Source of the DNA: Escherichia coli
GTDB lineage: Bacteria; Pseudomonadota; Gammaproteobacteria; Enterobacterales; Enterobacteriaceae
Direction: 5' to 3' (one strand)
Length of the DNA: 64,000 nt
NCBI RefSeq assembly: GCF_050920415.1
Contig: NZ_CP169309.1
In this document: positions 3,650 to 64,000 of the stretch, piece after piece
Numbering within the stretch: position 1 is the stretch's first letter
Layout of the letters: each line of letters begins with the position of its first letter
Position numbers and translations under genes: made by a program
Notes under the pieces: model-generated
Database searches by the model: none
Seen by the model: only the letters and a program-made list of their open reading frames with translations
What the model was told of the DNA's origin: nothing

Positions 3650-3775
3650 GTGCACTCAGTATCTACTGAATGAATACGGTTTCAGACATCGGCACCATAC
3701 GAAGTAAAGTGTACTGTAAGCTGATTGCAGGCTAGCGTATCCTGATTAGTAAAGGCACACTAAAGGAATAGCTTG

Positions 3776-5059
3776 ATGCAACTTACCAACGAAGAACAAG
3801 CACAGATTGCTCGTATAAAAGAAAAAATCCCACGCATTGCCGCACTGGATCCTGAATGTAAGTTATTCGGTTCTGAAGGTTGGAAATATCAATGGCCGAA
3901 GCCTGCCAGCGAGGCGGAAATAGCTTCCTGGGAGAAAAAACATAGCGTCACTTTGCCACGGGAATATCGAATTTTTCTTCGCTATATCGCTAATGGCGGT
4001 CCGGCACATGCCTACGGTCTTGAATCTTTAGGCGGTACAGATATTTATGGCGATATAACAAAAGAAAGCCCTGTACCGCTTTATATGACGCAGCAGGATG
4101 TTGATGTGTTGAATGCTGGCCGTACAGAAGATGATGAAGAATATAGTTTTTTTGACGGCGCATTGACCATTCTCACCCTGGGATGTACTTATGATATTTG
4201 CCTGGTGGTGACGGGGCAGTATCGCGGAAGGTTAATGCTGACTGATGGTGATGAAGATTATCCGTTTGATTTTATATATGATAAAAATTTCCTCAACTGG
4301 TATGAACGCTGGCTGGACGATTTTATTGCTGGCATGAGTATGAAGGGTTTCGATAGAAGTTTGCCAGGAACGCAAATTCAACTGCGTGAGTGGTTTTTAA
4401 CTGAGAAAATCCCGGATTTACGTAGATCCATTTTATTCTCGCTATGCCGTTTTCCACAGATAGAACCCGAAACTTTTGCCCTTTGGGAACATGTTTGCCG
4501 CACAGAGAATGATAAAGAATTGTGTGAAGAGGCATTCACAAGATTACGCCAAAAAAAAGGTTCTTGTGCTGCAGATATTTTTCGACTCTATTTTACAATG
4601 CCAGGTGAATTACGTGATATTGCTATTAAAGATCTCCGTTTTGCCTGTAGAGATAGTGTGGTGAATATTGAGGATTATATTCATTCACTGTTAATAATAA
4701 TGCCTGAACTTGACGATGACACTCTATCCTCAGCTGTCTTTGCTATACGAGAAACAGAGTATAATAAATATGATACTTTTCTGCCGCTTCTCGAACGTAT
4801 CACTGATGACCGTCAGCAAACATTATTGTGGGCGATGAGTAAGGCGCCTGATTTCAATGAAAGCCGAGGATTCGTTGAGTTGGTATTACCGCTTTTTGCA
4901 TCATCAAAGATGGAGAATGTAAGGAAGGCTATTTTGTTGCTCATTGAAGTTAAAGATAATCGTATTCCACCATTGGTTGATGAAGCTGCAACTCGTTTCC
5001 CTGAACTGACCATTTTACGAGAAAACTACTATCTCAGGACGTGGGGACATAAGCCATAA
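3776..5059 (+). CDS. Accessory protein: N-terminal SUKH-1/SMI1-KNR4-like domain plus about 230-residue helical-repeat C-terminal region (putative immunity-type protein)
   Basis: ATG 3776 with AAGGA 8 nt upstream (track start 3773 is TTG). Motif WEKKHSVTLPREYRIFLRYIANGG and later DGALTILTLGCTYDICLVVTG...FDFIYDKNFLNWYERWLDDF resemble the SMI1/KNR4 pattern. AT-rich with rare codons; absent at this position in K-12. Confidence 0.8.
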   Translation: MQLTNEEQAQIARIKEKIPRIAALDPECKLFGSEGWKYQWPKPASEAEIASWEKKHSVTLPREYRIFLRYIANGGPAHAYGLESLGGTDIYGDITKESPVPLYMTQQDVDVLNAGRTEDDEEYSFFDGALTILTLGCTYDICLVVTGQYRGRLMLTDGDEDYPFDFIYDKNFLNWYERWLDDFIAGMSMKGFDRSLPGTQIQLREWFLTEKIPDLRRSILFSLCRFPQIEPETFALWEHVCRTENDKELCEEAFTRLRQKKGSCAADIFRLYFTMPGELRDIAIKDLRFACRDSVVNIEDYIHSLLIIMPELDDDTLSSAVFAIRETEYNKYDTFLPLLERITDDRQQTLLWAMSKAPDFNESRGFVELVLPLFASSKMENVRKAILLLIEVKDNRIPPLVDEAATRFPELTILRENYYLRTWGHKP

Positions 5060-5096
5060 ATTAATGGTTCAGAAATGATCTAACGCGGAGAAAAAT

Positions 5097-5627
5097 ATGA
5101 TCAGGGAACATATTCAGCAAGCGATAAATAATAGGTTAGCATTTGATGGCCCATTCAATGTTGTTCCTGAACCTGCAAGCACTGCGTTTGATGGCCGGAT
5201 CCCGACATTGAAAAACGGTGTCTGGCAGAAGGCCAGCCCTATGTTGCAGGCGCGTTTTGCACATTGTGGACGTTGGTTAAGCGCTACACATGGAAGCTGG
5301 CTAAGTATAAGTGACATGGAAACGCTTTGGCAGGAACACATAGAAGATACGTTTCTTGATGAAATCAAAATGAATGCTGTAGCTTCAAGTGATAATTGGG
5401 ATAACCATGCCTTGGGACTATTTCGTTCTCATCGCCTGTCACTTTTTGCCGGTAGTGATTACAGTTATGAAATGGTTTTTCTCCTTTGGCTAGATAGTAC
5501 CGTTGAGCCAGAGGTCTGGGTTTATGACTGCAATGGGGAATCACGTTATAAAGATCTTAATGATTACCTGAATGCATATATTAATGATGACGTAAGCGCC
5601 TGTGAGCGCTCCTGGCGAGTAGAATGA
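5097..5627 (+). CDS. Accessory hypothetical protein (176 aa) whose C-terminal half resembles a SUKH-type immunity fold
   Basis: ATG 5097 with GGAG 6 nt upstream; C-terminal LFAGSDYSYEMVFLLWLDSTVEPEVWVYDCNGESRYKDLNDYLNAYIND resembles the SMI1/KNR4 C-terminal pattern. Stop overlaps the next start (ATGA). Confidence 0.6.
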   Translation: MIREHIQQAINNRLAFDGPFNVVPEPASTAFDGRIPTLKNGVWQKASPMLQARFAHCGRWLSATHGSWLSISDMETLWQEHIEDTFLDEIKMNAVASSDNWDNHALGLFRSHRLSLFAGSDYSYEMVFLLWLDSTVEPEVWVYDCNGESRYKDLNDYLNAYINDDVSACERSWRVE

Positions 5628-6250
5628 ATAGCCCCCCTTGCCCCTTTGATCCACAAACCGCACATTACCTCGGTACAGTGCAAATCCACTACAGCCCAAC
5701 CACCTTCAACGCTGCCGTTAAGCATTATACCTGTTACATTAAAAAGCGTTTTAAAGGGTTTAAATGGGGAATTGGAACCGCTGGCTTATTGGCTATATTG
5801 CCCATGATCCCACAATGGTTGAAACCTTCTCATGACTTTAAACTCAACGCAATCAGTACGTTAATTCTTCTATTAATGTTGCCACTCCTCTTATCAATGT
5901 TCCTGTTAATCAGCAGAAGAATTAACGATTTTAAGTCAAAAACAAAGCAAGTTACTTTTACGAAACCCGTGCGTTATGCGTTTTATTTCGAGGGGATTGT
6001 TTTTTATGAATCTCATCAGCAGGGCATACTTCGCTGGGAAGATTTGTATAGCATTGACTATGAAGAAGATTATTTGTGGCTTTTTCTGCATTTACCGAAG
6101 AGTTTTCCCAGAGAAGCGACGAAAGCGTTTTGCGATATTTTCATTCCCGCCAGCGCGATAAAAGCGCAGCCTGAACTGGATACGTTTTTTCGTGAAACAC
6201 GCCACTCGCTGGATTATCTGTTTGTCCCGTTTAATTCTGACAGAAAATAA
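5624..6250 (+). CDS. Accessory membrane protein, YcxB-like architecture (two adjacent TM helices then a soluble C-terminal domain)
   Basis: ATG 5624 overlaps the upstream stop. Hydrophobic segments WGIGTAGLLAILPMIPQWL and AISTLILLLMLPLLLSMFLLI, followed by FYFEGIVFYESHQQGILRWEDLYSIDYEEDYLWLFLHLPK. Confidence 0.6.
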   Translation: MNSPPCPFDPQTAHYLGTVQIHYSPTTFNAAVKHYTCYIKKRFKGFKWGIGTAGLLAILPMIPQWLKPSHDFKLNAISTLILLLMLPLLLSMFLLISRRINDFKSKTKQVTFTKPVRYAFYFEGIVFYESHQQGILRWEDLYSIDYEEDYLWLFLHLPKSFPREATKAFCDIFIPASAIKAQPELDTFFRETRHSLDYLFVPFNSDRK

Positions 6251-6283
6251 AAAATCCCCCGTATCTGGTGAAACGGGGGATTT
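6245..6283 (-). terminator. Intrinsic terminator of pckA
   Basis: Perfect stem AAATCCCCCGT (6252-6262) / ACGGGGGATTT (6273-6283); on the pckA strand the hairpin is followed by TTTTTTATTTT. Confidence 0.8.
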
Positions 6284-60131: not shown

Positions 60132-60490
60132 TGAAACGAATTGCGTTTGTTTTTTCTACTGCGCCTCATGGTACCGCTGCAGGCCGGGAAGGTTTAGATG
60201 CTTTACTGGCAACTTCCGCATTAACTGACGATCTGGCTGTCTTCTTTATTGCTGATGGCGTTTTTCAGCTGTTGCCAGGACAAAAGCCCGATGCAGTGCT
60301 GGCGCGTGATTACATTGCCACTTTTAAATTGTTGGGTCTGTACGACATTGAACAGTGCTGGGTTTGTGCGGCTTCACTGCGCGAACGCGGGTTAGATCCG
60401 CAGACCCCCTTTGTTGTCGAAGCCACGCCGCTCGAAGCAGATGTCTTACGCCGCGAACTCGCCAACTACGATGTTATTTTGAGGTTTTGA
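60131..60490 (+). CDS. tusC: Sulfur relay protein TusC
   Basis: 119 aa [27 protein letters not shown]... Confidence 0.94.
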
Positions 60491-60497
60491 GGCGTTT

Positions 60498-60785
60498 ATG
60501 CTGCACACATTACATCGTTCACCCTGGCTGACGGATTTTGCTGCGCTGTTGCGTCTACTCAGTGAAGGCGACGAACTGCTATTATTGCAAGATGGTGTAA
60601 CTGCCGCAGTTGACGGTAACCGCTACCTTGAAAGTCTGCGTAATGCCCCCATTAAGGTCTATGCCCTGAACGAAGACCTTATTGCCCGCGGTTTGACTGG
60701 TCAAATTTCGAACGACATCATTCCCATTGACTATACTGATTTCGTCAGACTTACGGTTAAGCACTCCAGCCAGATGGCCTGGTGA
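60498..60785 (+). CDS. tusB: Sulfur relay protein TusB
   Basis: 95 aa [21 protein letters not shown]... Confidence 0.93.
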
Positions 60786-60807
60786 TGGCGGGATCGTTGT
60801 ATATTTC

Positions 60808-61285
<478 letters not shown>

Positions 61286-61366
61286 TGGTTCTCCGTTAAG
61301 TAAGGCCAAACGTTTTAACTTAAATGTCAAACTAAACTCGTAGAGTTTTGGACAATCCTGAATTAA

Positions 61367-61852
<486 letters not shown>

Positions 61853-61936
61853 TCCCTTCGGAGTTTTAGTCACCAGGCGGGCGCTTCCAGTAAGCAGCCC
61901 GCTTTGGGCTACTTAAATTGAACGCCTAAAAGATAA

Positions 61937-64000
<2,064 letters not shown>

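Follow-up and report, generated by a model that had tools for sequence, protein, structure and literature searches.

Ribosomal protein S7 of Escherichia coli occurs in two lengths, and the locus considered here raises the question of which of them is original and what the sequence that distinguishes them represents. In a stretch of 64,000 nucleotides from an E. coli strain (contig NZ_CP169309.1; the whole stretch is hereafter called the window), the S7 gene rpsG closes with a TAA codon, after which the same frame runs on to a second stop. An earlier note on this DNA took the run for the C-terminal tail of the 179-residue K-12 protein, "still readable" behind the stop of a short allele, and saw in the difference both a clean lineage marker and a natural case of a stop-codon change that extends a ribosomal protein. 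That two S7 forms exist and that one base is the cause is already known; the forms of strains K and B have been familiar since protein sequencing in the late 1970s. In those terms, the K-12 *157L allele gives the 179-residue 'S7K' and the window allele the 156-residue 'S7B', as in strain B. The reading that we hold, with great confidence, is that the rpsG allele of the window is the ancestral one and typical of the species, that the codons downstream of its stop are spacer, and that the K-12 tail is the product of an A-to-T stop loss.

The rpsG allele of the window

The gene order is tusB-rpsL-rpsG-fusA-tuf, with rpsG between rpsL and fusA in the str operon. The features on which the argument depends are the following.

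60808-60836, upstream of rpsL: sigma-70-like promoter (promoter/terminator scan)
60911-61285, + strand: rpsL (S12), first gene of the str operon (annotation)
61382-61852, + strand: rpsG, 30S ribosomal protein uS7, 156 residues, stop included in the coordinates (ORF list, translation, RefSeq annotation)
61850-61852, + strand: TAA stop of rpsG; the polymorphic base is 61851, A here and T in the MG1655/W3110/EMG2 branch
61853-61918, + strand: 22 in-frame sense codons, untranslated spacer here, residues 158-179 of S7 in MG1655-type K-12
61919-61921, + strand: next in-frame stop, TGA, overlapping the GAACG box (see below); the S7 stop in MG1655-type K-12
61939-61943, + strand: Shine-Dalgarno sequence GAGGA of fusA (sequence; GAGG conserved in the alignment)
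61949-64000, + strand: fusA (elongation factor G), with its ATG at 61949 and its end beyond that of the window (annotation of an identical record)

As expected of an ancestral 156-residue uS7 gene, rpsG has 156 codons that end in ...AFAHYRW and are followed by a stop, and it lies in the rpsL-rpsG-fusA position. The earlier note's placement of TAA at 61850-61852 directly after this motif is exact according to the sequence, the ORF list and the translation, and its in-frame run to a stop at 61919-61921 consists, on translation, of 22 sense codons and then TGA. RefSeq annotation of a 100%-identical record, NZ_CP169399.1, assigns the rpsG product to WP_001138043.1 with coordinates unchanged; fusA lies at 449083-451197 in that record, which corresponds to window positions 61949-64063.

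A single base separates the window from K-12

We aligned 171 nt around the stop from the window, BW25113 (K-12), CV601 (K-12-type rpsG), ATCC 11303 (strain B) and EC1515. This alignment had a single variable column, 61851, at which the window, ATCC 11303 and EC1515 have A and BW25113 and CV601 have T. With T at this position, as in the MG1655/W3110/EMG2 branch of K-12, codon 157 becomes TTA and reads as leucine; the window has TAA there, so that the TTA of the *157L allele is absent from it, and the downstream codons and TGA of that allele are present. The 22 downstream codons and the TGA are base-for-base identical between the window and BW25113, whose rpsG translates to 179 amino acids with a 23-residue tail (156 + 23 = 179). 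The K-12 tail does not differ from the translation of the window, an identity that follows from the near-identity of the DNA between the strains. The alignment and the BW25113 translation bear out the claim that the run matches the extra tail of the 179-residue K-12 S7, and equally the claims that one base at the stop (61851, TAA to TTA) separates the 156- and 179-residue forms and that this strain, with TAA at codon 157, has the short one.

In the window strain, S7 translation stops at codon 157, where the UAA has a U behind it, and the 96-nt spacer of the str operon stays untranslated. In one branch of K-12, the A-to-T change at the second base of the stop codon produces UUA (Leu), upon which ribosomes continue, pass through a hairpin in the spacer (described below), add 23 residues and arrive at a UGA 27 nt before fusA. 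The untranslated rpsG-fusA stretch in MG1655-type K-12 is only these 27 nt, 61922-61948. The rpsG mutation, the C-terminal extension, the poor termination at UGA by K-12 RF2 and the SsrA tagging of S7 have all been described (PMC9997739). As cited there, SsrA (tmRNA) tagging of K-12 S7 at the weak UGA was reported by Collier et al. 2002 and Schaub & Hayes 2011, and the same source attributes an aggravation of the tagging to the Thr246 allele of K-12 RF2 and to rluD deletion. The UGA concerned is that at 61919-61921, whereas the window strain ends S7 at a UAA 66 nt upstream, and the tagging has no bearing on it.

Distribution of the two alleles in E. coli

The E. coli set comprised 5,426 complete genomes, and a 599-nt query containing rpsG and its 3' flank matched 5,425 of them at at least 99% identity. 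Alleles were scored with allele-specific 31-mers centred on the stop, in which a central mismatch leaves no 28-base word for megablast. Among the 5,425 genomes having the region, the TAA 31-mer was found in 5,070, the TTA 31-mer in exactly 348 and neither in 7; 57-mer probes were consistent with these counts, with 5,063 (TAA) and 348 (TTA) perfect matches. The short allele is thus carried by ~93% of complete E. coli genomes, and also by ATCC 11303 (B) and NCM3722. Probes for CAA, TGA and TAG alleles at codon 157 had no matches in the complete E. coli genomes.

TTA carriers were inspected by name (60 evenly sampled and 60 top-ranked of the 348), and all were of the K-12 line, with chromosomes of 4.46-4.79 Mb in every case. 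The sampled carriers included MG1655, BW25113, W3110-type strains, DH1, DH5alpha, DH10B-type NEB strains, C600 and J53, together with HB101, MC4100, TG1, AB1157, HMS174, O16:H48 'mouse gut' isolates and transconjugants.

A few records fell outside this pattern. The 7 genomes that match neither 31-mer carry a sequence change no more than about 15 nt from the stop, the rpsG 3' region also appears on one record labelled as a plasmid, and 1 of the 5,426 genomes is without an rpsG match. Oddities of assembly or labelling, together with SNPs in the flanking sequence, probably account for these cases.

Direction of the change and its place in the K-12 pedigree

Polarity was assessed with a species scan that took one genome per species and searched for the codons that close S7 (TTCGCNCACTACCGTTGGT), with no constraint on the codon behind them except a first T. 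Among the matches listed, which come from many phyla, the codon after HYRW was TAA, TAG or TGA in 120 of 120, in a scan that requires T after TGG and from which sense codons beginning with A, C or G escape. With a stop in all of these loci, at least 120 in number, the stop is ancestral and the TTA of K-12 is a derived stop loss.

The pedigree of K-12 places the event more closely. Between EMG2 and the early K-12 stock WG1, the SNV table of Browning et al. 2023 records 'A->T STOP_LOST tAa/tTa *157L rpsG' (PMC9997739). NCM3722, a K-12 strain that is grouped with WG1 (PMC9997739), has a 471-nt rpsG ending in TAA, with the product WP_001138043.1, the same protein as in the window. As two K-12 strains, WG1 and NCM3722, have TAA, the stop was lost within the K-12 pedigree; the long allele marks the EMG2/MG1655/W3110 branch and is younger than K-12 itself. 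The rpsG stop loss is common to EMG2, MG1655 and W3110, where it is listed with prfB T246, rph-1, the ilvG frameshift and rpoS variants, and it is not known when the mutations of this group arose (PMC9997739). The other genes in that list are unrelated to rpsG, to which they are linked by pedigree alone.

The site is consequently a lineage marker in one direction: TTA does mark the EMG2/MG1655/W3110 branch, and TAA, found in 5,070 genomes and also in WG1 and NCM3722, is uninformative. The short allele is the norm for the species and says merely "not that K-12 branch". To call the difference a natural case of a stop-codon change is doubtful, given that the mutation does not extend beyond a pedigree of laboratory strains.

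One may postulate the opposite history, in which the 179-residue form is ancestral and a nonsense mutation truncated S7 in this strain, leaving a tail that is decaying and can still be read. The phrase "still readable" implies as much, and a frame that stays open for 22 codons would fit. Such a history is contradicted, however, by the stop in all 120 listed species representatives, by the excess of TAA over TTA (5,070 vs 348, the latter of the K-12 line wherever inspected), by the TAA of WG1 and NCM3722, both of them K-12, and by a downstream frame that varies from 0 to 42 codons among relatives, with tandem stops in 4 species. We give this alternative virtually no chance of being correct and reject it on the outgroups and the pedigree data. 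The polarity is the reverse of what the phrase suggests, and the stop of the window is the older state.

Is the downstream frame read?

An old stop could still be followed by a frame of some use, and we compared the corresponding position across 33 Enterobacterales spacers (the window and 32 species). Between 0 and 42 sense codons precede the next in-frame stop, and 12 of the 32 other Enterobacterales have at least 22 open codons at the matching place. A run of this length is not unusual, its chance being (61/64)^22, or ~0.35. In four species (Enterobacter sp. BIGb0383, Enterobacter sp. Ag1, Klebsiella sp. BIGb0407 and Cedecea neteri), rpsG ends in a tandem TAATAA. The tandem stop in these species is created by a 3-nt insertion-like difference directly after the stop codon. 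On these comparisons of sequence, the 22 in-frame codons of the window are spacer RNA, and not a vestigial or conserved coding region.

It is conceivable that the tail is nonetheless a cryptic functional extension, reached by programmed read-through that the hairpin stimulates, with both S7 forms being made in wild strains. A stable, conserved hairpin does begin 14 nt downstream of the stop, and in the 12 relatives mentioned above the frame is open. The stop itself speaks against this scenario: the U after UAA is nearly invariant across Enterobacterales (alignment column T10), and UAA followed by U is regarded as the most efficient terminator context in E. coli, the tightest and not a leaky one. 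Nor is the frame kept among relatives, since besides the 4 species with TAATAA there are others that close it after 3-13 codons yet keep the hairpin, which indicates that conservation of the hairpin does not depend on a frame that can be read; the tail, moreover, cannot be shown to be conserved as protein. Because of the UAAU context and the non-conserved frame, read-through is not expected in this strain, and on the same two grounds we reject programmed read-through, which we judge to be very improbable.

A conserved hairpin and a GAACG box in the rpsG-fusA spacer

Three features of the spacer are relevant here.

61853-61948, + strand: rpsG-fusA intercistronic spacer, 96 nt (sequence, annotation)
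61867-61911, + strand: conserved RNA hairpin of 18 pairs with the core GGCGGGC/GCCCGC, without a U-tract (folding, alignment)
61920-61924, + strand: GAACG box; G61920, A61922 and C61923 are invariant in 33 of 33 Enterobacterales spacers

The spacer is 78-97 nt long among the 33 Enterobacterales. In the window it folds into a hairpin with a minimum free energy of -23.7 kcal/mol and a z score of -3.8, and none of 200 dinucleotide shuffles was as stable. A hairpin occupies the matching place in 32 of the 33 Enterobacterales, the exception being Hartigia, a reduced endosymbiont; in the 32 species that have it, it starts 13-39 nt after the stop and ends 0-17 nt before the GAACG box. There are three stem sequences in all: GGCGGGC/GCCCGC in the representatives of Enterobacteriaceae, Hafniaceae, Pectobacteriaceae, Budviciaceae and Erwiniaceae, CUGGGYGGC/GCYRCCCAG (CUGGGUGGC/GCCACCCAG) in Photorhabdus, and GGGUAGC/GCURCCC in Xenorhabdus, Moellerella, Providencia and Morganella. 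The z scores are -4 to -7 in Photorhabdus, Xenorhabdus, Moellerella, Morganella and Providencia. Automated extraction of the hairpin caught the apical mini-helix alone in Pectobacterium (2), Brenneria, Pantoea and Rosenbergiella, where internal loops are large, and the 8-pair core alone in Superficieibacter; the outer stems of all six partial species are visible in the alignment and folds.

MAFFT alignment of the 33 spacers misaligned the Morganellaceae hairpins, and for this reason pair counts were limited to 22 well-aligned spacers and the rest were folded individually. RNAalifold on the 22 spacers recovers the stem, with 4 pairs that show double changes. When these spacers are read in the full register of E. 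coli, 85.9% of cells are paired, compared with 32-50% when the partners are slid against each other, and in 3 pairs both partners change. The covariation score of 0.121 vs 0.099 lies above all 500 shuffles, although the signal is modest and the tested structure was itself taken from the window sequence. Covariation within the E. coli-type group is likewise modest, given that the core GCGGGC/GCCCGC never varies there.

Downstream of the hairpin, the GAACG box is conserved at 61921 and 61924 in at least 90% of spacers in addition to its three invariant positions; in terms of alignment columns, G77, A79 and C80 are invariant and A78 and G81 nearly so. The UGA that serves as the replacement stop in K-12 overlaps this box.

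Several known classes of element were considered for the hairpin. A search of 60400-62400 against Rfam 15 gave no cis-regulatory match at E <= 1, its sole match being a chance miRNA hit inside fusA, and a promoter/terminator scan found nothing in the rpsG-fusA spacer. The 3' flank of the hairpin is CUUAAAUUGAACG, and a U-tract is missing here and in the other families; an intrinsic terminator, which the GC-rich hairpin might have suggested, was rejected because there is no U-tract 3' of the stem. A repeat element such as REP was rejected because the region is single-copy per genome. No description of this Enterobacterales spacer hairpin was found in the literature that we searched, and the hairpin is the sole item in this analysis that is possibly new.

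Comparable arrangements have been proposed elsewhere. For streptococci and Pelagibacter ubique, structured elements have been put forward in the rpsG-fusA interval (PMC2704228), and these likewise place conserved secondary structure between the same two genes, although sequences and phyla differ and the element of streptococci is an attenuator of the terminator type, whereas the hairpin of Enterobacterales lacks a U-tract. In E. coli regulation, as recounted in PMC10931766, S7 represses its own coupled translation through the rpsL-rpsG region (Saito, Mattheakis & Nomura 1994), and the same source reports that fusA translation is coupled to rpsG. The known S7 operator shares the operon with the hairpin, but it lies upstream of rpsG (about 61286-61381 in the window) and not in the rpsG-fusA spacer.

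The hairpin may be functional, acting in transcript stability or processing, or in the spacing and coupling of fusA translation. A more specific proposal, which we regard as tentative and unlikely, is that the hairpin and GAACG together make up a cis-acting RNA element, so far undescribed, in the str operon of Enterobacterales. If they do, the element could set the ratio of EF-G to S7 synthesis, affect processing or stability, or be a second S7-responsive site. The stop loss in K-12 would then put the element under translating ribosomes, and str-operon regulation in MG1655-type strains would be subtly altered along with the lengthening of S7.

One may also suppose that neither the hairpin nor the GAACG box has a function and that the spacer has been kept through close kinship and low mutational input, a possibility that we consider only somewhat unlikely. 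The invariance of the stem core in the Enterobacteriaceae-type group, which deprives it of any covariation signal, is what one would expect in that case, and so are the modest covariation of the structure as a whole, the lack of a hairpin in Hartigia and the tolerance of K-12 for translation through the hairpin. Kinship accounts less readily, however, for a stable hairpin at the matching position in Photorhabdus and in Xenorhabdus, Moellerella, Morganella and Providencia, where the spacer sequences are entirely different, or for a GAACG motif that stays unchanged while the flanking spacer has diverged with indels. The loss of pairing from 86% to 32-50% on sliding the partners points in the same direction.

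Strain context and other loci in the window

Window positions 39001-64000, 25 kb of core genes, match E. coli MFDS1022581 (NZ_CP169399.1), which comes from food of animal origin in Korea, at 100% identity. A single further complete genome, N96 (from a Tibetan pig), exceeds 99% over the 25 kb, and most stand at ~98.6%. The strain belongs to a divergent lineage of E. coli that has been sparsely sampled. In other respects the genes from yhgF to fusA are the standard set. EF-G is WP_000124703.1 here, as opposed to WP_000124700.1 in K-12, B, EC1515 and NCM3722, and the differing accessions imply that this highly conserved protein differs by one or more amino acids.

Far from the str operon, a three-gene insert lies between envZ and pckA (window 3650-6280); it is present in 19 of the 5,426 complete E. 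coli genomes.

3776-5059, + strand: SMI1/KNR4 family protein
5097-5627, + strand: hypothetical protein
5624-6250, + strand: hypothetical protein

NCBIfam models gave no match for any of the three proteins. Proteins of the SMI1/KNR4 family typically serve polymorphic-toxin systems as immunity proteins, and the insert may be an orphan immunity islet.

Implications

As a discovery the stop-codon difference carries little weight, since the two S7 forms are textbook-level for researchers of the E. coli ribosome. Its bearing is on what K-12 is taken to represent. In the PDB, 351 entries have an S7 chain of 178/179 residues, and about 50 have an E. coli-type chain of 156 residues. The long S7 is a quirk of one K-12 laboratory branch, and some caution is therefore due when K-12 ribosomes stand for the E. 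coli ribosome. Genome annotation is affected in its own way: PGAP annotates the MG1655-type rpsG (BW25113/CV601-type records) as a pseudogene, 'incomplete; partial in the middle of a contig; missing C-terminus', a call that falls on an essential and functional K-12 gene because the stop expected by the family model is absent. What K-12 translates as a tail is, in wild strains, a conserved structured spacer, and K-12 may consequently link the expression of rpsG and fusA differently from them.
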